In this document: positions 10,776-33,897 of the stretch, piece after piece | Numbering within the stretch: position 1 is the stretch's first letter | How the letters are laid out: each line of letters opens with the position of its first letter | Virus genome (UHGV): UHGV-0207457 | Reading direction: 5' to 3' (one strand) | DNA from: a virus | Length of the DNA stretch: 36,350 nt | Made by a program: the position numbers and the translations under genes | The notes under the pieces: model-generated | The model's input: only the letters and a program-made list of their open reading frames with translations | What the model was told of the DNA's origin: nothing | Database searches by the model: none

Positions 10776-12287
10776 ATGTTTAATCTTTTTCGACGCAATA
10801 AGGCGGTAGAAACTCCAGTTAAAACTAATCACCGCCAGCAACAACAAAAAATCTTTATCGACAAACAAGTAGAAAAATTCCAGAAAGATTTGTCTAAGCG
10901 TTCTTTGGGCTTAGTTGGTGATCGCATTGATGGATCGCTTCAACAAGATACTATCACAGGAACCTTCAATAAGGCTCTCAAATCGAATGGTAAGCGCCTT
11001 TATGACCAGGGTCGTACTCTGGCCTTAAACACTTCCGTAGGCAGTCGCTACACGCAATACATCACCGATATGGTGGTAGGTACTGGCCTAGATCCGAAGC
11101 CGTCAGTTGTTAAATCAAATGGAAAACTTGATAGCGCACTGAATAAGCAGATCGAGAATGCTTTCTGGAAGTGGGCGCAGAATGCTAAACGCTTCTCCCG
11201 CAATGGTCGTTTTAACTTCCGTGAACTGCTGGTAATGGCTGAACGTGAGCGCGTTATGGGTGGTGAGTGCTTCATCGTTTTAACCAAAGAAAACAATGAG
11301 TTAAATGTTTCTATCCTGTCTGCTGATAAGTGCGACTGGTCGCTAAACCGTGAAGTAAGCAAAGACCGTGCGATATATCAAGGTGTGGAGTATGACGTAG
11401 AGACGATGAAGCCCGTAGCATACTGGTTTCGTAAAATCAACCTACTGACTCAGACTTACACAGGTGATAACTATCGCGTAGATGCTTCGCAAGTATGCCA
11501 TTATTATCAACCACTTGCGGCTGAATCTCTGCGTGGTGTGACTGACTTCCTGCCAGTGATTAAGGATATCGCACATCAAGACGCATTCCGCGAAGCTGTA
11601 CTGGTCCAGAAACGAATTTCAGCTAGTAGCATGGCGTTCATCGAGCGTCCGAAAGATTCTGGTGACGATTTTGATACTGGTGAAGATGATGAACAATATC
11701 AAGCGCCGGAAGTTATTCACGATTTCGCGCCGGGTACTATTCAGGAATTGCCGGAAGGGGCAACGATCAAGAGTATTCAATCCACGCAAAGCGGCGATGA
11801 TTTCAATTCATTTAACGCTGGTATGTTCACTAGCATAGCAATGGGTCTTGGCGTGTTCAATCAGGGCTTAACTGGCGATACTAGCCAAATAAATTACAGC
11901 GCTGCACGCTACGGCGAATTACTTCAAAGAACGCGCGTTAAAGCACTGCAAAACAAATTAATTGAAACAGTGGTATTGCCAATTTTCGAAGCGTATCTGC
12001 GTCATTATTCCGCGCGTGGTATTGTTCCGATTCGTATTACTGCAATTCCGCATATTATCGATAACACTACTATTATTCGTCCGCGTTTTGAATCCGTCGA
12101 TCCATTTAAAGACGTAAGCGCCGAGATTGCTTTAATTGATAACGGACTTAAATCACGTACTGCCGTTATATTGGAACGTGGTGATGATCCTGAAAAAGTA
12201 TTCTCAGAGATTCAAGCCGAAAAAAGCGCACTAAATATTATCGTTGATGGCGAGGGTGAAGAAAAAAATTCCCCAGCCGATCCCTAA
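10776..12287 (+). CDS. Portal protein (503 aa), lambda gpB-like
   Basis: Size, acidic C-terminus and position between terminase and the protease-capsid gene; RBS GGGG. Confidence 0.75.
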   Translation: MFNLFRRNKAVETPVKTNHRQQQQKIFIDKQVEKFQKDLSKRSLGLVGDRIDGSLQQDTITGTFNKALKSNGKRLYDQGRTLALNTSVGSRYTQYITDMVVGTGLDPKPSVVKSNGKLDSALNKQIENAFWKWAQNAKRFSRNGRFNFRELLVMAERERVMGGECFIVLTKENNELNVSILSADKCDWSLNREVSKDRAIYQGVEYDVETMKPVAYWFRKINLLTQTYTGDNYRVDASQVCHYYQPLAAESLRGVTDFLPVIKDIAHQDAFREAVLVQKRISASSMAFIERPKDSGDDFDTGEDDEQYQAPEVIHDFAPGTIQELPEGATIKSIQSTQSGDDFNSFNAGMFTSIAMGLGVFNQGLTGDTSQINYSAARYGELLQRTRVKALQNKLIETVVLPIFEAYLRHYSARGIVPIRITAIPHIIDNTTIIRPRFESVDPFKDVSAEIALIDNGLKSRTAVILERGDDPEKVFSEIQAEKSALNIIVDGEGEEKNSPADP

Positions 12288-12333
12288 TAACCAACGGGGG
12301 GCGCAATGCCCCCAATTAATTAAAGGTGATTAA

Positions 12334-14340
12334 ATGCTTAAATTTCGCCGCGAACTTAACGGTTACGGTGGAGTTATTAACGAAGGGCATAACGATCAAT
12401 ACGAATTTGAAATTGCTTTCTCCAGTGAACAGCCTTATCAGCGCCAATTCTGGGATGAGCAAAATCAAGAAATGGTGGTATTAGATGAAATTCTGGTACA
12501 TACACCGGAAGCGGTTGATCTGTCTCGTCTGAATAATAACGCTCCGTTGCTGTTTAATCATAATTTCGATAATCATTTAGGTGTCGTTTGTAACGCTCGA
12601 ATCGATGCGGATAAAGTAGGCCGTGCGACCGTTAGATTCTCTAAGCATGGCACTTTGGCTAATGATATTCGTAATAAAGTCATTGAAGGTACGATGGAAA
12701 AAATTTCTGTCGGTTATGACATTAAAGAATATCACATCGATTATGCCAAAGGACAATTGATTGTTACTAAGTTTGTTCCTTTCGAATTAAGTTTTGTTAC
12801 GGTCCCGGCGGACGATTCGGTCGGTTTAAATCGCTCTCTAAATACTATCACAGTTAATTTGGAGGCTAAACGCGATATGACTAAAGAACAAATCGAAGAA
12901 ATCAAAGAAGAACAAGAACCCGCTCAGGTTGAAGAAACTCCGGTAGAAGAAAATAAAGAATCGGAAGTTGAAGAAACTCAAGAGCGCCAAGTTGAAGAGA
13001 ATAAAGAAGATGAAAATCTCGAAGACGGAAAAGACGCTGAACATCCTGAAAGTGTTGATGATGATAGTTCAACTGTTCGGGAAACAGAAGAAGTAAAAGA
13101 AGAACGTGAAGCCGTTCCGGTTGAAGAAGAAAAAACCGAGGAAGTGGCTGAACGTTCCGAAGAAGACGAATTAGAAATCCGCGAGATCGCGCGGGAACTA
13201 AATATTGACGACGAAGAATTAAAACGCGCATTGGCAATTAAAGACATGACGCCGGAAGCATTCCGCACTAAGGCACTAAATAACATTACCAATGCTCAAC
13301 GTATTAACGAACAAATTAATAAGGAACAAATCATGGAAAAAACTTTCGATCTTAATAACGTAATCCGCTCCCTGGTAGATGGCGACGTGCTCGGCGCTAA
13401 CGAAGCTGAATATTCCGCTATGGCTGCTGGTGCTGCAATGCAGCGTGGTCGTGCTGCTCGCGGTGGCTCTGTATTCGTTCCGGCTGCTGCTCTGCGTGCT
13501 GCTTCCGAAGGTAACACCAAAGCTACTCTGACCGCTGTTACTGATGAAAAACTGCTGACTGAATCCTACATCGAAATGCTGTTGCCTCAGAGTGTTTTAG
13601 GCCGCCTCGGTGTAACCGTTCTGTCTGGCCTGACTTCCCCGATCGCTGTTCCGAAAATGACCGCTTCCAGCGTCGAAGCCTTTGGTTTTGTTGACGAAAA
13701 TGGGGCTGCCCCCGAGTCACATGCGGAATTTTCGAACGTGAAAATGGCTCCTAAGACGTTCGCTGGTGGGAATCCGATCAGCAGAGCTAGCATAAAGCAA
13801 GTTCCCGGCATCGCTACCCTGATCACTGATCACATTAACAAATCTGTTCGGATCAAACTGGAACAACTGATTCTGTCTGACAAAGACAACGAGCGCGGTC
13901 CGGCTGGCCTGGTTAAGCAACTGGTAGACGCGGGTCGCGTTACTAAGAAAGCCGCTTTCTCTTACAAAGACTTCCTGAAAGAAATTGCAGCACTGACCGA
14001 CGCTGGCGTTCCTGCTCAGGCGATCAAGTTTGCGATGAGCGGTGCAACTGCTGCTGAACTGGAATCTACCCTGAAAGATAACGGCGTTTCCGGTTATATC
14101 ATCGAAAACGGCAAACTGGCTGGTTACGAAGTAGTTACTTCTGGTGTTATCCCGGCAGACCACATCGTTCTGGGCGCGTTTGACGGTATCACCATTGGTG
14201 AGTGGGGCGGTCTTGAACTGGATATGGACGACACTACCTACCGCGCACAGTCTGCTATCGTTCCGCGAATCTGGGTAGACCTGGATTATGTTGTTACTCA
14301 GCCGGAAGCTCTGAAAGTTCTTCACATCTCCGCTGAATGA
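12334..14340 (+). CDS. Fused prohead protease - scaffold-like acidic linker - HK97-fold major capsid protein (668 aa); ends in TGA
   Basis: N-terminal ~170 aa carry prohead-protease-like motifs (LLFNHNFDNHLG, ISVGY, ELSFVTVPAD); residues ~180-300 are Glu-rich; C-terminal ~340 aa is capsid-like. Confidence 0.85.
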   Translation: MLKFRRELNGYGGVINEGHNDQYEFEIAFSSEQPYQRQFWDEQNQEMVVLDEILVHTPEAVDLSRLNNNAPLLFNHNFDNHLGVVCNARIDADKVGRATVRFSKHGTLANDIRNKVIEGTMEKISVGYDIKEYHIDYAKGQLIVTKFVPFELSFVTVPADDSVGLNRSLNTITVNLEAKRDMTKEQIEEIKEEQEPAQVEETPVEENKESEVEETQERQVEENKEDENLEDGKDAEHPESVDDDSSTVRETEEVKEEREAVPVEEEKTEEVAERSEEDELEIREIARELNIDDEELKRALAIKDMTPEAFRTKALNNITNAQRINEQINKEQIMEKTFDLNNVIRSLVDGDVLGANEAEYSAMAAGAAMQRGRAARGGSVFVPAAALRAASEGNTKATLTAVTDEKLLTESYIEMLLPQSVLGRLGVTVLSGLTSPIAVPKMTASSVEAFGFVDENGAAPESHAEFSNVKMAPKTFAGGNPISRASIKQVPGIATLITDHINKSVRIKLEQLILSDKDNERGPAGLVKQLVDAGRVTKKAAFSYKDFLKEIAALTDAGVPAQAIKFAMSGATAAELESTLKDNGVSGYIIENGKLAGYEVVTSGVIPADHIVLGAFDGITIGEWGGLELDMDDTTYRAQSAIVPRIWVDLDYVVTQPEALKVLHISAE

Positions 14341-14469
14341 ACTCCTGTAGAACCATCTGAACCTTCCCCCGATTCGGGGGAAGAAAATCTGATTCCTAAA
14401 CCGGAAGAAGATTCCCAGACGGTTACGGCGAAAGCCACAGCTAAAAAACAGCGTAAAACTAAAGAATAA
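14341..14469 (+). other. In-frame 42-codon extension after the capsid gene TGA; candidate programmed readthrough tail
   Basis: No stop from 14341 to TAA at 14467-14469; encodes TPVEPSEPSPDSGEENLIPKPEEDSQTVTAKATAKKQRKTKE; 20-nt core 14422-14441 is identical to 20337-20356. Confidence 0.5.
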
Positions 14470-14474
14470 TAATT

Positions 14475-14502
14475 AGCCCTGCCTAACGGTGGGGCTTTTT
14501 TG
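14475..14502 (+). terminator. Intrinsic terminator after the capsid extension
   Basis: AGCCCTGCCTAACGGTGGGGCT followed by TTTTTT; near-identical copy at 20390-20418. Confidence 0.65.
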
Positions 14503-15237: not shown

Positions 15238-16071
15238 ATGAATATTACACAAGATAACTTAGATATTTTCACTGGATCACATGTTGAAGTGTCGATCTCT
15301 AACCAGATAGACAATCAGGTCGACTTTTTCGATCCTAGCTTTAGTTCTATGGAGAACATCGCAGCATTCCCTACGCTAACCGAATCCACAGAGATAGAAA
15401 CTCTGGAAGAGTACGATCAGGACGCTACGGGGAAACTTGCTGGTTATCGTAGACTGGAACCGACAACACTCACATTAAACCGTGTTCTTGACGATGAACA
15501 TCAAGCAATGTTGATGAAAGCGGTAGAGGATAAAACACCTTTACGCTTCCGTATGTTCTATGTTGTGAACTCTGGCTATAGTGCTGCTAACACTGGTTAC
15601 TATGTCATCTATGACGCTTATGTCACTAGTCACAAAACCCGTGGCGCAGATAACAAAGCTGTAACACTGGAATTTAAACTTGAACCAGATGGCGGGATTT
15701 TGGCAAGGGGTATAGCGACCGAGGGAAAAATTCTGCGACAAGGGGATTATGGCGTAGGTGCAGGTGTACATCCATTCACGGGTCCAATTGATAGTGATGC
15801 TTTAGCAGGAAACCGTTTCGTAACTTACAAGGGAACTGCTAGCGGTAATCCATACTCAGCCGACACATCATTAATTCACCTTCAAGCTAATGAGCATGGC
15901 GCATGGCAATTAACCTGTAATACTTCCGGTGCACCACGTTTACGTGTCCGAAATATTCAGGAAAACGGTCGCTCTGAATGGATCAAGGTATATTCCACCA
16001 ATGAGAAACCGACACCTAGCGAAATTGGCGCAGTGGCTAAGACTGATAGAATCGACTTCGGTGAGTATTAA
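15238..16071 (+). CDS. Structural protein (277 aa) whose C-terminus shares a KPTPxEIGA module with the tail fibre; possible fibre-attachment/collar protein
   Basis: RBS AGGGG; C-terminal YSTNEKPTPSEIGAVAK parallels the fibre's YHEGDKPTPAEIGAYTK, with ~80% nucleotide identity across the 27-nt core. Confidence 0.6.
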   Translation: MNITQDNLDIFTGSHVEVSISNQIDNQVDFFDPSFSSMENIAAFPTLTESTEIETLEEYDQDATGKLAGYRRLEPTTLTLNRVLDDEHQAMLMKAVEDKTPLRFRMFYVVNSGYSAANTGYYVIYDAYVTSHKTRGADNKAVTLEFKLEPDGGILARGIATEGKILRQGDYGVGAGVHPFTGPIDSDALAGNRFVTYKGTASGNPYSADTSLIHLQANEHGAWQLTCNTSGAPRLRVRNIQENGRSEWIKVYSTNEKPTPSEIGAVAKTDRIDFGEY

Positions 16072-16146: not shown

Positions 16147-19100
16147 ATGCAATCAATCCAATTTAAACGCACACAAACGGCTGGTAAAAAGCCGACGCCG
16201 GAACAATTATCACAGGGTGAGATCGCCTTACAACTGGCGGACCATGTGATTTACACCAAAGACAAAAATAATAACGTAGTCCAAATTAGTGTTTCTCCAG
16301 AAAAACACGCTGAACTTAACACTAAAGTAGACAATAACAAAACTAGCACTGACCGTGTTATTGCTTCCAACAAACAAGAGGCCGCTAATAATCTGGCTAG
16401 TGCTAAAGCTGAACTGAATCAGACTATTACCACTAAAGACACCGCAACCAATAAGCGCATTGATGCTACCAACACCACTGTTAGTAACTTAACCCAGACA
16501 GTTACGGCAAATAAAACCGATGCCGACACTAAGATCAATAACCTTACGGGGACCGTATCTGCGAATAAGACCGCAATTGAAAGAACCGTTGCCGCAAACA
16601 AATCTGATGCAGATAGCAAACATGCAGCTTTAACGAAAACGGTCACTGACAATAACACCGCGATTAACAACAAGGTTAATACCACTAACACCAACGTTAG
16701 CAACTTAACTAAAACTGTTACTGCAAATAAAACCGATGCAGATAACAAAATTTCTAGCTTAACTAGCACGGTTGCAGCTAACAAGACAGCGATCGAAAAG
16801 ACTGTTTCCGACAATAAGAAAGACGCGGATACTAAGATTACCAATCTTACTGGCACTGTTAACAGCAACCATACCGCAATTAACAACAAGGTAGACCAGA
16901 ATAAATCTTCTACTGATGCCGCAATTGCAGCCGCTAACAAACGAATTGATGGTATTGAAGGTAGCAATGATGCTCTTTACATCAAGAAGAATACCAATAC
17001 TAAGCATGGTGGGTATCTGTTAAGCAAGACAGCTAACTATTTGGAAGACCAGACAGCGAGAGATCTTAACTACTTTGGCGCTTTCCGTACCAATGGTCAA
17101 GATGGACTCATGGATCTAACTCTTAACGTTCCTCATTCTGCCGGTAAAGCGCACGGTCGCGGATTTACTTTCCGTTATGCGTCTGGTGGATCTCGTGTTG
17201 AAACCTATGGTTTTGATAGAGAAGGACAGAAGAACTTTAGCTATAAAATGTATCACGAAGGGGATAAACCGACTCCTGCTGAAATTGGCGCATATACCAA
17301 AGGCGAAATTGATAAGATGTTTATTAAAAATGTCACAATGTCTGTTCCTTCTGGTAGTGAATCCCGTGCTTATTTCAAGATTGCTACGGCTACGATCCCG
17401 CAAAATGGTCGTATGGTAATGCTTCGTATCTTCGGTGGTAACGGTTATAACGTTAACTCCTATGATCAGGTTGACTTTTTAGAAATTGTTATCCGTTCCG
17501 GTAACAATAACCCGAAAGGCGTTAGTATTGCTGCTTATCGTCGAAACTCTTTGAACGTTCATCAAGTATTTGCGGTTAATACTTCCGGTGATAACTACGA
17601 CATTTACGTTAACTACGGTCGTTATACTGATAACGTTATTGTCGAATATGGTAAGACTAGCGGTGTTTCACTGACTGTTCATGACACCCCAGCTATGACT
17701 AACGTTAAGCCGTCTACTGGTGTTACAGATGGACGTGTTATTACAATGTTCAACACCGAAAACAAAGCCGGAACATTGATGTTTGATAATAACGGACAGG
17801 GAACATATGATATTGTCAGTTTGAATAACGATTCAGGTACTGGAAAAAAATATCTTCGTAAATTCCGTAGTAAAGCCGCAGAAACAATCTGGCATGAAAC
17901 TGTTCAAGGTAACGTATATCGTTTAGCGACTGGCACTACCGATTCTAGCGAAGTTCTACGAATCACTGGTCGCACCATGTTTACTGGTAAAGGCGTATTG
18001 GATGCTGGACAAAACGTTCTTAGATTAGAACGTCCTAGTAACCAATCTAACTACATTGAATGGCAGGACCGCCGCAATGGTGCTGATGCTCGTCAAGGTT
18101 GGATCGGTTTTGGTAGTGCGGAAACAAATAACTTCATGTGGTATAGCGATCATGGGAAAAACTCATTTCAGCTAGAAGCTAACGGTCAATGTTCTATATC
18201 CACTGGTGCAAATAAACTTGTATATACCAATGGTGAATATTGCTCTGGCAACTCTAACGCATATCGTATGGCATTTGGTAACTATGGCGCATTCTGGCGT
18301 AATGATGGTGGTAAAGTTTATCTTCTGTCGACGGATGAAAACGATAAGTTGGGCGGCTGGAATACTTATCGACCATTCATTTACGATCTTACTTCCGGTA
18401 ACGTTCAATTAGGCGGTGATGGTAACGAAGATGCATTAACGTTAGAACGTGCTTCTCGTGCCGCTCGTTTTAGCAATAACGTTTACATTAAGAAAGGTTT
18501 TTTGACTTTTGATGCTGGTCGGTCTGGTTCTCGCGATTATATTCGATTTAATCATTGGGGCGATAGTAATAACGCCCGTGATAACGTCTTGTACATAGAA
18601 GATAGTCAAGGCCGACATTTTAGCACAGAGCGTGCGATGGGTACTGGTGCTCTTAAGGCAAACTTCTTAGGCGATCTTGAAGTCGGTGGTAAGTTTACCT
18701 GGGGTAAAAATACAGCTACATCCAGCTTTAATATTCGTGCATGGGGTAATGATTCTCGTAAGCAAGTATTAGAATGCGCGGATGAAAGTGGTTGGCATTG
18801 GTATACCCAACGTGCTGGCGGTCCGGGCACAAATGAAATTAACTTTAGTGTTAATGGCAGTATTCACTCACAAGGGATTGCAACTTCCGGTAATATTAAA
18901 ATAACTGGACCTGATATTGAATTTCGTCGCACTGGCAATAAGCATATCTGGTTTAGAGATCCGAACGGCTTAGAATTAGGTTTGATGTACTGCGATGATG
19001 CTGGTGTTATCCGCTTCCGTGGTCAGAAACAAGGTCAAACTTGGAAACTTGCTGATAAAATGATTCATCTTGAGGCGGGGACTGTCGGCGGGTCTGATAA

Positions 19101-19731
19101 AGGTTTGATTCGTGGTAATGTTGCTGGTGGTAGCTGGGCTAGCTGGCGTGATCGTTCTGCCGGAATCCTCGTAGACTGTCCGAACTCAACCGATTCCGCT
19201 CATAACATCTGGAAAGCTACTCATTGGGGTAAATATCACATTGCAGCAATGGGTGTGCACGTTCCTAGCGGTACTATCACCAATGCTTTAGCTCGCCTAA
19301 ACGTTCACGACGCCAACTTTGACTTTAACGCTGCGGGTGATTTTAGCGCAGGTCGTAACGGTAGCTTTAATGATGTTTACATTCGCTCTGACTCCCGTTT
19401 GAAGATTAACAAGGAAGAATTACAGGACGGCGCATTAGAGAAAGTAAACTCCCTGAAAGTCTACACCTACGATAAAGTTAAATCTCTTAAAGACCGTAGT
19501 GTGATTAAACGCGAAGTAGGTATTATTGCTCAGGATCTGGAAGAAGTATTGCCGGAAGCAGTAGGTATTCAATCCACCGAAGATCCAGAACAACCGGAAG
19601 CAATTAAGACTATTTCTAACTCTGCTGTTAATGCCTTGATTATTAAAGCTATTCAGGAAATGGACGCCAAATATCAAGCTAAGATTGAAGCATTGACTAA
19701 AGAGATTGCCGAACTCAAAGCAACTAAATAA
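16147..19731 (+). CDS. Side (long) tail fibre, T4 gp37 / lambda Stf-like, with tandem shaft repeats and C-terminal intramolecular chaperone (peptidase S74-type) domain (1194 aa)
   Basis: N-terminus MQSIQFKRTQTAGKKPTPEQLSQGEIALQL resembles T4 gp37; YLRKFRSKAAETIWHETV resembles gp37 YLRKVRAKSGGTIYHEIV; two ~72-aa tandem repeats (~16480-16910); C-terminal SDSRLKINKEE...AIQEMDAKYQAKIEALTKEIAELK is chaperone-like. Confidence 0.85.
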   Translation: MQSIQFKRTQTAGKKPTPEQLSQGEIALQLADHVIYTKDKNNNVVQISVSPEKHAELNTKVDNNKTSTDRVIASNKQEAANNLASAKAELNQTITTKDTATNKRIDATNTTVSNLTQTVTANKTDADTKINNLTGTVSANKTAIERTVAANKSDADSKHAALTKTVTDNNTAINNKVNTTNTNVSNLTKTVTANKTDADNKISSLTSTVAANKTAIEKTVSDNKKDADTKITNLTGTVNSNHTAINNKVDQNKSSTDAAIAAANKRIDGIEGSNDALYIKKNTNTKHGGYLLSKTANYLEDQTARDLNYFGAFRTNGQDGLMDLTLNVPHSAGKAHGRGFTFRYASGGSRVETYGFDREGQKNFSYKMYHEGDKPTPAEIGAYTKGEIDKMFIKNVTMSVPSGSESRAYFKIATATIPQNGRMVMLRIFGGNGYNVNSYDQVDFLEIVIRSGNNNPKGVSIAAYRRNSLNVHQVFAVNTSGDNYDIYVNYGRYTDNVIVEYGKTSGVSLTVHDTPAMTNVKPSTGVTDGRVITMFNTENKAGTLMFDNNGQGTYDIVSLNNDSGTGKKYLRKFRSKAAETIWHETVQGNVYRLATGTTDSSEVLRITGRTMFTGKGVLDAGQNVLRLERPSNQSNYIEWQDRRNGADARQGWIGFGSAETNNFMWYSDHGKNSFQLEANGQCSISTGANKLVYTNGEYCSGNSNAYRMAFGNYGAFWRNDGGKVYLLSTDENDKLGGWNTYRPFIYDLTSGNVQLGGDGNEDALTLERASRAARFSNNVYIKKGFLTFDAGRSGSRDYIRFNHWGDSNNARDNVLYIEDSQGRHFSTERAMGTGALKANFLGDLEVGGKFTWGKNTATSSFNIRAWGNDSRKQVLECADESGWHWYTQRAGGPGTNEINFSVNGSIHSQGIATSGNIKITGPDIEFRRTGNKHIWFRDPNGLELGLMYCDDAGVIRFRGQKQGQTWKLADKMIHLEAGTVGGSDKGLIRGNVAGGSWASWRDRSAGILVDCPNSTDSAHNIWKATHWGKYHIAAMGVHVPSGTITNALARLNVHDANFDFNAAGDFSAGRNGSFNDVYIRSDSRLKINKEELQDGALEKVNSLKVYTYDKVKSLKDRSVIKREVGIIAQDLEEVLPEAVGIQSTEDPEQPEAIKTISNSAVNALIIKAIQEMDAKYQAKIEALTKEIAELKATK

Positions 19732-19787: not shown

Positions 19788-20258
19788 ATGTCTCAATTTA
19801 ATGATATTTTTACTGGTGGTCTGGTAAGTCTGTTCTATCACGCTGATACCACTAACACCGCTCTCGATCACTCCGGTTACGAAGAAATTAAAGAGTGCGC
19901 TGGCTTCCCTGAAACTGCTATCGAGCGCGGTACTGTAGAAGTTAAATCCTTCTCTTCTCAGTACAACCGTAAGCTGGTAGGTAAACTGAATGTTCCTGAT
20001 CTGACTCTTACGGTGAATTACATCCCCGGGGATAGTGTCCATGAGAAGCTCATAAAGGCTGCCGAAGACGGTACTCGAATCCAGATTAAAGTAGAGTATT
20101 ACGTATCAGCGGATAAGCAGACTGGTATTCGCACCGCTTTCAACGGCTTTATTTCTAAAGTTGCTATGAACGGTGGCGATGAAGAAGTTGTAACCAAAGA
20201 GTTTACCTTCGCGGTGGACGGAAAGCCGATCAAACAGGAAATCTTCACTGCCGGATGA
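19788..20258 (+). CDS. Major tail (tube) protein, lambda gpV N-domain-like (156 aa); ends in TGA
   Basis: DLTLTVNYIPGDSVHEKLIKAAEDGTRIQIK parallels lambda gpV [33 protein letters not shown]; placed ahead of the G/T chaperones and tape measure. Confidence 0.65.
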   Translation: MSQFNDIFTGGLVSLFYHADTTNTALDHSGYEEIKECAGFPETAIERGTVEVKSFSSQYNRKLVGKLNVPDLTLTVNYIPGDSVHEKLIKAAEDGTRIQIKVEYYVSADKQTGIRTAFNGFISKVAMNGGDEEVVTKEFTFAVDGKPIKQEIFTAG

Positions 20259-20432: not shown

Positions 20433-20939
20433 ATGGCAAATGTCGTTAAAGTTCCTGGCTGGATCGGGTCATCTGCTGTATCGGTGACGGGTAAGCGATG
20501 GATGAAAGAAGCACTAACAGCTTTAAAAGTTCCGGCTCCGCGTAATATGTCGGCAATGGCTGGTCGTGGTATGGATACGGTTGTAGCTACTGCTGCATGG
20601 TCTACTTCATTGGGTAATAACTGGGGTGTAACTGCTTCAAACTATCCGGTAACTGACATGCGCGGTAAAGGGTCAATGGAGAACCCCGAAAACGTGGGCG
20701 TAGGGCGTCTGATTGGCGTTATCGTTGGTCAATTCAATGGCGGTACTCCTACTATGGCTGTATATCTCCAGAACGGTAGAGCGGGGAATATAACCGTTAA
20801 TTTGGGTGGTGCTACTGTCACTGTTCCTTATAACAGTATGCAAAGTGGTTTTCATTACTATTGGTTAAGCAATCCTCCGGCTGCTTTCCTCAATAACATT
20901 AAGAAGACTGGCACTAAGCAGACTTTGAAAATCTCTTAA
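20433..20939 (+). CDS. Hypothetical tail-associated protein (168 aa)
   Basis: RBS GGAG; Gly/Ala/Thr-rich; between the tube gene and the chaperone genes. Confidence 0.55.
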   Translation: MANVVKVPGWIGSSAVSVTGKRWMKEALTALKVPAPRNMSAMAGRGMDTVVATAAWSTSLGNNWGVTASNYPVTDMRGKGSMENPENVGVGRLIGVIVGQFNGGTPTMAVYLQNGRAGNITVNLGGATVTVPYNSMQSGFHYYWLSNPPAAFLNNIKKTGTKQTLKIS

Positions 20940-32154: not shown

Positions 32155-33834
32155 TTAAATTCCAAATTCTTGTAATGGACCTGGTATTTCTTCTTCTGGT
32201 TTCCAGTTCTTATCTGTCAGCATGTCTAAACATGGATGCAGAACAAGCCCGTTACTCTCCAGAATCTGCCTATCATTGATAGTCTTCAAATCAACGAAGA
32301 TCCGGCCTTTCCTCGGTCCTCTTGAATTTTCTATTACAACTCTCTGGGTCTTGCCATCGATGTATTCCAGTACAAACAAGTTTTTGTACTTGTCAATCCT
32401 GCTGCACCCGATCCGTTTTAGAGCTTGCTTAATCTTAAACCGGACCTTAATGCGATCCTCGTTGTAAACATCTTCTAAATCAAATTCTGCGAGCTTCTCC
32501 CAGCCTTGAGAGTCAACAGAATACATTTCCTCTTCTGCCATCTTAAGTTGATTGTAGAGTGTTTCACGCTCGCTATTGAGGGTAGTAATCTGATCGGCTA
32601 GCTCCTTCGTTGCTCCTGTCATAGCAGAAAGGGTAATCAGGTTATCAATCTTGCGTGATATTTCATCAATCTGTACTTTCAAAGCCGGAACCGGATTAGC
32701 CTTATCTTCAGCAATCCAGATTTTATCAGCCAGCAATTGCAATACAGCTTTCTCTAATTGGTCGCCGCGAAAACTCCAGTTTGTATGCACACATTCAATA
32801 CGACTAGAGCGCATTGCATCGCATGAATAACGATATTGGTTAGGCCGTCTGTTTGTTCCTTTCACCTTAACCATAGCGGAACCGCAATGTTCACATTTCA
32901 ATAGACCAACACCACTAAGCAAGGGAATAGGTTTAACTTCTTCTTTGTCTCCAAAGTTACATGCTCTAACACCAATGCTTTTCTTAAGGTGATAAAACTC
33001 AGCGTCATCTAGCACACGAGGATAATAATCCTTTAACTCATACTTAACGCCATCTACAGAGATTTCCTTGATACCAATCAAAGCGCGGGTATGGAACAAC
33101 CTTTCAATCATTGCCCGTGACCAGTTTGAATGCCTCTTGTGACTTGCGGCTGGTGGTGGTGTGTATGTCGCGTTAAGGTGATCCAGTATCTCGGCGGTTG
33201 ACCGTCCATTCCTGCGTAATTCCACAACTTCCTGAACAATAGGGAAGAAGACCGGATGAGGAAGCACATAACCAGATGTGGTATCAGTCCACCACATATT
33301 CTTTCCAATTTCCTCGATTGCAACAGCCGGATTTTGTGGATTTTCTTGATGAGCTTTAATCTTAATCAGTGCGCTTGAGTTAGTACGATTGCGCTTAGTC
33401 TGGCTTTCCTCATTACCACGGATGAATAAAAGGATGGAGAACATCAGGTCCATCGGGTTAGCGGTAACAGTATCAAGCGAGTAGATCTTGTTATCCATGC
33501 CAGTAACAATGGTTATCCCCCTACGGATGATTGAAAGGAATAACTCCTGCGCACTGACAATATCGGCACGGGATAAACGGTCCAAGTTTTCGATGAATAG
33601 CCAGCTACCAACAGGAACGGATCTACCTATTGCATCAAGGAAACGAGATAGCGCCCCTGTTTTGGAGTTAGCACCCTTAAACGCAGATACACCCAGATCC
33701 TGATAATCATTTACCAGTTCAAGGTCATACTTTACCGCAATCTCTCTAGCCATCCTGATTTGTCGTTCATAACTCGAACCATCATTCTGACGCATAGACG
33801 AGAAGCGAATATACGAATACAGTTTAGTTTTCAT
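32155..33834 (-). CDS. Large serine recombinase (integrase), 559 aa
   Basis: N-terminal resolvase catalytic domain (YSYIRFSSMRQ ... SYERQ ... ENLDRLSR), central recombinase domain, zinc-ribbon-like CEHCGS...YRYSC, C-terminal coiled coil; ATG at 33834 (track start 33849 is TTG). Confidence 0.85.
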   Translation of the reverse strand: MKTKLYSYIRFSSMRQNDGSSYERQIRMAREIAVKYDLELVNDYQDLGVSAFKGANSKTGALSRFLDAIGRSVPVGSWLFIENLDRLSRADIVSAQELFLSIIRRGITIVTGMDNKIYSLDTVTANPMDLMFSILLFIRGNEESQTKRNRTNSSALIKIKAHQENPQNPAVAIEEIGKNMWWTDTTSGYVLPHPVFFPIVQEVVELRRNGRSTAEILDHLNATYTPPPAASHKRHSNWSRAMIERLFHTRALIGIKEISVDGVKYELKDYYPRVLDDAEFYHLKKSIGVRACNFGDKEEVKPIPLLSGVGLLKCEHCGSAMVKVKGTNRRPNQYRYSCDAMRSSRIECVHTNWSFRGDQLEKAVLQLLADKIWIAEDKANPVPALKVQIDEISRKIDNLITLSAMTGATKELADQITTLNSERETLYNQLKMAEEEMYSVDSQGWEKLAEFDLEDVYNEDRIKVRFKIKQALKRIGCSRIDKYKNLFVLEYIDGKTQRVVIENSRGPRKGRIFVDLKTINDRQILESNGLVLHPCLDMLTDKNWKPEEEIPGPLQEFGI

Positions 33835-33897
33835 ACCATTTCCAAACAAAAACGCCCCTACCGCGTATTATAACGATAGGGGCTAGGTGATTAAAGA

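Follow-up and report, generated by a model that had tools for sequence, protein, structure and literature searches.

The viral genome UHGV-0207457, a stretch of 36,350 nucleotides (nt) referred to here as the window, represents a complete prophage of the siphovirus type that encodes a large serine integrase. In this prophage, prohead protease, scaffold-like region and major capsid protein are specified by a single gene, which belongs to a known family of S78 protease-scaffold/delta-capsid fusions; family membership and the domain assignments given below can hardly be doubted. Shortly behind the part encoding the protease, the gene contains a Shine-Dalgarno (SD) motif and an in-frame ATG at codon 182, an arrangement conserved in most relatives, from which a second, protease-free protein would be produced. 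Taken as a whole, the explanation that a gene of this family acts by way of two products appears probable to us. The gene, its outer start and the regions of its product are the following:

12322..12329, plus strand: SD-like sequence AAAGGTGA of the outer start, recognized from the sequence, with a duplex energy to the anti-SD of -4.3 kcal/mol
12334..14340, plus strand: fusion open reading frame (ORF) for protease, acidic linker, helical scaffold-like domain and HK97-fold capsid domain, with ATG start and TGA stop, 668 amino acids (aa), 73.7 kDa
12394..12837, plus strand: prohead serine protease domain, residues 21-168, from Pfam, AlphaFold2 (AF2) and profile alignment; modelled as a beta-rich globular domain with a predicted local distance difference test (pLDDT) score above 90
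12559-12561, 12706-12708 and 12784-12786, plus strand: codons for His76, Ser125 and Glu151
12838..13143, plus strand: acidic linker predicted to be disordered, residues 169-270, isoelectric point 4.1, from composition and a pLDDT below 50
13144..13509, plus strand: helical scaffold-like (delta-domain-like) region, residues 271-392, modelled by AF2 as a six-helix region with a pLDDT of about 90
13510..13560, plus strand: hinge, residues 393-409, GNTKATLTAVTDEKLLT, with a pLDDT below 50; predicted maturation-cleavage zone and start of the N-arm
13561..14337, plus strand: HK97-fold major capsid domain, residues 410-668, from Pfam, a PDB match and Foldseek; AF2 pLDDT above 90

An ORF with exactly these borders, joining protease, acidic segment and capsid, had been described in the initial annotation and was confirmed. 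According to the ORF listing, no stop codon is present between the protease and capsid domains. The SD-like sequence is located 4 nt 5' of the outer ATG, and a stop codon directly upstream. A separate gene for a protease or a scaffold was detected neither between the portal gene (10776-12287) and the fusion gene nor among the window ORFs in a scan leaving out very small ORFs. The NCBI collection contains an identical protein, entered as 'phage major capsid protein [Escherichia coli]'. Variants with 93-98% identity, more than 100 in number, originate from E. coli and Shigella, and one of them carries the Joint Genome Institute (JGI) name 'HK97 family phage prohead protease'. Because of these entries and the abundance of full-length relatives, a sequencing artefact is ruled out as the source of the fusion.

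The N-terminal domain had been proposed to be a prohead protease rather than a domain of another fold, and Pfam, alignment to HK97 gp4 and fold comparison all agreed with this proposal. Peptidase_S78 (PF04586, 'Caudovirus prohead serine protease') matched residues 40-162 with 41.8 bits at a curated cut-off of 21 (E 1.6e-10). In an hhalign profile comparison of the fusion protein with HK97 gp4, His76 was paired with His65, Ser125 with Ser114, and Glu151 with Glu142, and the predicted structure of the domain showed an assemblin/T4 gp21-like fold. A PDB sequence search with the N-terminal profile yielded no matches. His76, Ser125, Glu151, Ser153, Asp160 and Arg167 are each retained in all 87 family members of a MAFFT alignment. 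Because of this invariance, the domain is regarded as subject to strong purifying selection and, very probably, as an active protease.

The AF2 model, calculated from 103 diverse family members, reached a mean pLDDT of 82.7 and divided the protein into the five zones listed above. For the part following the protease, a Glu-rich segment of about 120 residues had been noted initially. The richness in Glu was evident (33% Glu and a net charge of -36 for residues 171-300), but the part does not form one segment: the disordered acidic stretch is followed at residue 271 by the predicted helical domain. With about 100 residues, the acidic insert far exceeds in length its counterpart in most family members, where the alignment contains gaps, and its length differs by small insertions/deletions among the E. 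coli variants. Helices are predicted at residues 276-288, 293-301, 307-337, 340-349, 355-370 and 384-392, with pLDDT values around 90, and motifs within this region are kept across the family. Judged by its position and by the delta domains of HK97 and T5, the helical region may act as a scaffold.

The HK97-like capsid domain at the C-terminus, also part of the initial annotation, was supported by profile and structure searches. Phage_capsid (PF05065) was detected at residues 410-664 (E 2.7e-24), PDB entry 8gta, the capsid of roseophage R4C, was matched at E 9e-26, and the top Foldseek hits of the domain were the capsids of R4C (8gta), phiXacJX1, RcGTA and HK97, with a probability of 1.00 for R4C, HK97 and gene transfer agent capsids. 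The chain present in the R4C virion corresponds to the C-terminal part only; 8gta comprises 268 residues, which may be the modelled residues only, compared with 629 aa encoded by the R4C gene. In the alignment, its first residue maps to residues 396-397 or so of the fusion protein, which is inside the hinge. The capsid protein in its mature form, of about 29 kDa, is therefore expected to lack about 395 N-terminal residues, which make up protease, linker and helical domain.

The initial annotation had implied that a fusion of this kind is new. The architecture is already known, common, and described in print, and the family is large and annotated. In phage Miki, the same three-in-one head gene has been described (PMC13611946), gp5 of Pseudomonas phage MD8 has the same organization (PMC8508860), and a capsid-protease fusion in actinophages is described in a preprint (10.1101/2020.01.10.891226). 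The profile phrog_617 matches the protein end to end (residues 21-663 to profile positions 24-621 of 626, E 3.6e-89); phrog_4523 bears the name 'major head and protease protein'. Both halves of the protein were matched by tblastn in 75 phage records, among them phiHAP-1, VP882, R4C, RcCronus, Xanthomonas phages FoX and Murka, ep3, Mica and S-CBS1/3; for the gene of Murka, the annotation reads 'major capsid protein and protease'. Related stretches number at least 581 in a viral-contig collection, and an exhaustive search of 1.84 billion cluster representatives revealed at least 411 clusters (50% identity) at E<=1e-30, nearly all of 560-700 aa. Among 5426 complete E. coli genomes, 49 (about 1%) were found to carry the locus itself; strains 14EC017 and UTME-9 are examples of carriers of the prophage. 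The gene order TerL, gpW-like, portal and fusion is the same in DCP80, R4C, Murka, phiHAP-1, VP882 and ep3.

The closest relative in the phage database is Escherichia phage DCP80 (PQ671644.1; locus L001, 1-13786), with about 40-43% identity and a homologue that is not annotated as such. This record of 141 kb is filed under Straboviridae/Tevenvirinae (T4-like), yet it starts with a lambda-like module of TerL, gpW-like, portal and fusion genes, most of which are annotated as 'hypothetical protein'; possibly, this entry is a chimera or has been misclassified. A gene for a protease only (P0147, 297 aa; locus L098, 3501-5564, E. coli GCA_020887765.2) was considered as a natural split gene and rejected, the fusion gene being truncated there by an IS3-family insertion. 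Such a truncated copy, derived from a decayed prophage, is present on at least 11 contigs.

The elements of the predicted inner start are located as follows:

12861..12865, plus strand: GGAGG, SD motif belonging to the predicted inner start and placed 11 nt 5' of its ATG, -9.3 kcal/mol
12877..12879, plus strand: predicted inner in-frame start codon, Met182, proposed from the family-wide enrichment of SD and ATG

A protein initiated here would consist of residues 182-668 (487 aa, 53.0 kDa) and would lack the protease. In the site, which reads TTG GAG GCT AAA CGC GAT ATG, the SD energy is -9.3 kcal/mol versus -4.3 at the outer start, and GGAGG is spelled with rare codons: TTG accounts for 6 of 51 Leu codons and GAG for 9 of 81 Glu codons. 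All of 120 close variants possess Met182, and GGAGG is kept in six of seven E. coli copies, the seventh having GGGGG. Among seven aligned proteins, all possess a Met shortly past the protease end, and six have an SD-like motif at start-like spacing. Different Arg codons (CGA and AGA) are used in phiHAP-1 and VP882, with GAGG kept in both.

The arrangement was evaluated in 63 non-redundant representatives of the family (below 70% identity), in which every in-frame ATG was scored and no sites were picked by eye. The score was the hybridization energy of nt -17 to -4 to the anti-SD, and values of -5 kcal/mol or lower were considered strong. The equivalent of Arg167 served as anchor by means of MAFFT alignment columns, and the 45 residues past the protease domain constituted the test interval. 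ATG codons with a strong SD made up 64% at +1 to +20 and 73% at +21 to +40 residues past the anchor, and 4-20% in other intragenic bins; a strong SD energy is encountered at 13% of all codon positions. Within the test interval, a strong SD combined with ATG was detected in 51 of the 63 representatives, compared with 10.9% of 753 control intervals from the same ORFs. Synonymous resampling with each gene's own codon usage (1000 trials) yielded 22.7 +/- 2.9 representatives with a maximum of 32, and the observed 51 exceed this mean by about 10 standard deviations. Counted by codon, 52 of 77 ATGs in the test interval were preceded by a strong SD versus 89 of 860 elsewhere (odds ratio 18). A Met as such was found in 59 of 63 test intervals versus 66% of control intervals (P 2e-7). 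The median SD energies were -6.2 kcal/mol at the inner and -6.0 at the outer gene starts, and the outer start overlaps the portal ORF in 39 of 51 relatives. Because the medians are equal and the overlap is so frequent, the ratio of the two products cannot be deduced from these data. Sigma-70-like promoter sequences inside the fusion gene were not in excess (three found, 4.0 expected); therefore, an internal transcript is not indicated.

A number of observations weigh against the inner start and the processing scheme connected with it. The spacing of 11 nt between SD and ATG in the window is longer than optimal, synonymous resampling of the single Met182 site gave P=0.07 only, and the mRNA at Met182 is predicted to be less accessible than at Met334, a candidate start further downstream (mean unpaired probability 0.35 versus 0.76). 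Twelve of the 63 representatives do not have a strong SD with ATG in the test interval. Acidic, Gly/Arg-rich linkers favor GAG/GGA strings, as seen from the resampling mean of 22.7, and the 63 representatives are related by descent, by which the P values overstate their independence. The inner start is predicted from nucleotide sequence. The mature N-terminus is uncertain for the reason given above for the 8gta chain, and His65 and Ser114 of HK97 gp4, to which the protease residues were aligned, are presumably its active-site residues. Experimental mapping of processing or of an inner start in this family was not found in any relevant paper within a limited literature covering R4C, YuA-type phages, AXL1, Stx2 phage Sp5 and phage 7-7-1; processing is not mentioned in the R4C structure paper, and Sp5 has a different capsid type without protease. 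With all of this considered, the conservation pattern leads us to regard functional use of the inner start as rather probable.

If the inner start were not used, only the 668-aa protein would be made, one protease would accompany each capsid subunit, and all copies would digest themselves after assembly. The uninterrupted ORF and a normal SD at the outer start are in line with such a single product, the gene is regarded in this way by the database entries and in the publications on Miki and MD8, and 12 representatives lack a strong inner SD with ATG. However, conservation of SD and ATG in 51 of 63 representatives, far above resampling, is hard to explain if they are not used, and known systems hold the protease at low copy number via nested starts. 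We therefore consider a single product unlikely, and the obligatory 1:1 stoichiometry of protease and capsid, which the initial annotation had derived from the fusion, is probably wrong, since the conserved SD and ATG past the protease domain predict a product without protease. The conserved sequence might also have another origin than a working start. It could be the relic of an ancestral gene boundary, as the genes for protease and capsid are adjacent in HK97, only 2 nt apart, and loss of a stop codon would create the same layout; or it could be an SD-like pause site aiding protease folding, as SD-like motifs arise readily in Glu/Gly/Arg-rich coding sequence (on average in 22.7 of 63 resampled representatives). 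Between proteins with only 24-45% identity, decay of a relic would be expected, yet both Met and SD were kept, and a pause site does not need an ATG at start-like spacing. In addition, the inner SD strengths equal those of real gene starts. A relic or pause site is accordingly regarded as improbable, and more so than a single product.

A different inner start, near 13,332 and thought to yield free capsid protein, had been suggested in the initial annotation. The ATG concerned is one base further downstream:

13333..13335, plus strand: ATG of Met334 (MEKTFDLNN), with AAGGA 7 nt upstream

As a source of protease-free capsid protein in this phage, Met334 has in its favor the AAGGA 7 nt 5' of the ATG and the accessible mRNA mentioned above; Met334 occurs in every one of 120 close variants, and AAGGA is retained even in divergent E. 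coli alleles. Across the family, the signal is not conserved: a strong SD with ATG within six residues of the Met334 column was found in only five of 63 representatives, the residue is Leu in DCP80, and it is not conserved among the six annotated phages in the alignment. Single-site resampling gave P=0.13. Moreover, two thirds of the conserved helical domain, which is cut at helix 307-337, would be missing from the product, and the product would not be 'free capsid protein' because about 63 residues absent from the mature capsid would remain. We therefore consider it improbable that the protease-free subunits originate from Met334, for which the SD and ATG of Met182 offer the better-supported route; Met334 may be a minor start specific to the E. 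coli clade, in which its AAGGA is kept.

According to the two-product explanation, which we prefer, two co-terminal proteins would be synthesized from one gene, one of 74 kDa from the start at 12334 and one of 53 kDa from Met182 at 12877. The 53-kDa protein, composed of delta/scaffold and capsid domains, would be the equivalent of HK97 gp5 and would provide most of the procapsid subunits. The full-length protein would co-assemble by its own scaffold-capsid part and carry the protease into the shell. As there is no stop codon between the two domains, the protease would be targeted by its covalent link to a capsid subunit, in parallel to the C-terminal tail of HK97 gp4 or the Nu3 part shared by lambda C. 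Once the shell has assembled, the protease with Ser125 and His76 would remove everything N-terminal of residues 393-409 or so, and the capsid protein would remain in its mature form of about 29 kDa. If this is true, the apparent paradox of one protease per capsid subunit would be resolved, and hundreds of database entries for the family would miss a second product.

Downstream of the capsid domain, two further elements were recognized:

14341..14472, plus strand: in-frame open extension of 42 codons after the TGA, ending in TAA TAA, a possible readthrough region, from the reading frame and the E. coli copies
14475..14502, plus strand: strong intrinsic-terminator-like hairpin AGCCCTGCC-TAAC-GGTGGGGCT followed by a T-run, directly after TAA TAA

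The extension, TPVEPSEPSPDSGEENLIPKPEEDSQTVTAKATAKKQRKTKE, does not contain an ATG, GTG or TTG start, and RefSeq annotation is absent within this stretch. In 14 of 14 copies (8 distinct alleles), the stop codon context is TGA-A, frame 0 continues with 28, 42 or 43 open codons, and both remaining frames are closed; insertions/deletions among the copies measure 48, 3 and 3 nt. Leaky readthrough of UGA may add a C-terminal tail to some capsid subunits, similar to the programmed readthrough extension of a coat protein of the Qbeta A1 type; in the E. coli copies, the stop codon is followed by an in-frame open extension throughout. The evidence is weak: five synonymous versus 22 non-synonymous codon differences give no signal of purifying selection, and the wider family mostly ends in TAA without an extension. 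If true, such a tail would be an unusual capsid decoration for a double-stranded DNA phage. A more comprehensive scheme would combine the tail with nested co-terminal genes throughout the family, the full-length form serving solely as protease vehicle by the principle of lambda C/Nu3 and UL26/UL26.5 of herpes simplex virus 1 (HSV-1), extended through the capsid; in the E. coli clade, a minority of subunits would receive 28-43 additional residues, acidic/Pro-rich and then basic, resulting in up to four isoforms. This scheme is unlikely in our opinion. The terminator-like hairpin is kept in the E. coli copies with a variable loop region, and in the HK97 record a putative terminator is annotated at the same place, after gp5.

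Upstream of the fusion gene, the prophage encodes a large terminase of the gpA type, a gpW-like protein and a portal protein of the lambda family. The gap of 46 nt between portal and fusion genes contains a GC-rich hairpin without T-run, GGGGGGCGCAATGCCCCC (12295-12314). Two paralogues of phrog_158, 'major tail protein', are present at 15238-16071 and 19788-20258; a gene for a T4-like long tail fibre of 1194 aa (16147-19731) and an adhesin gene (20433-20939) are associated with them, the fibre gene lying between the paralogues. In actinophages, a duplicated major tail protein co-occurs with the capsid-protease fusion (10.1101/2020.01.10.891226). At the end of the prophage, an integrase of the large serine recombinase type (564 aa, 32155-33849, minus strand) takes the place of a lambda-type tyrosine integrase.

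Compared with the fusion phages of the S78 type described so far, the protein of the window has the same composition, a Peptidase_S78 domain (about 160 aa) at the N-terminus, a scaffold region in the middle and a C-terminal HK97 fold, and its gene is found in the same neighborhood of TerL (gpA), gpW-like protein, lambda-type portal and fusion. It differs from most relatives by the long acidic insert at residues 169-270, and identity to characterized phages is only 23-43%. An inner start is not mentioned in the published descriptions of such fusions. MD8 gp5 contains a protease of the ClpP/lambda-C type instead of S78, which indicates an independent fusion event.

With HK97, the system shares the protease family, with His, Ser and Glu aligned, the capsid fold, a scaffold function within the capsid protein's N-terminal part, and a terminator-like hairpin after the capsid gene. 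In HK97, however, protease gp4 and capsid protein gp5 are the products of separate adjacent genes, whereas the window gene has no stop codon in between. The HK97 protease reaches the prohead via its own C-terminal tail.

Nested in-frame starts that yield abundant scaffold and a rarer protease-scaffold protein are established for lambda C/Nu3 and HSV-1 UL26/UL26.5, and a nested start was demonstrated by recent ribosome profiling for gp17/gp17.5 of the archaeal virus HFTV1. In all three, the in-frame start is positioned right past the protease domain and gives rise to a co-terminal product without protease, as is predicted for Met182. No paper stating that a nested start includes the capsid in the shared part was found with the limited literature access available. 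In lambda, HSV-1 and HFTV1, the shared part is scaffold only and the capsid gene is separate, whereas here it would comprise scaffold and capsid; if the nested start is used, this would be a third layout for controlling the ratio of protease, scaffold and capsid in tailed phages and herpesviruses.

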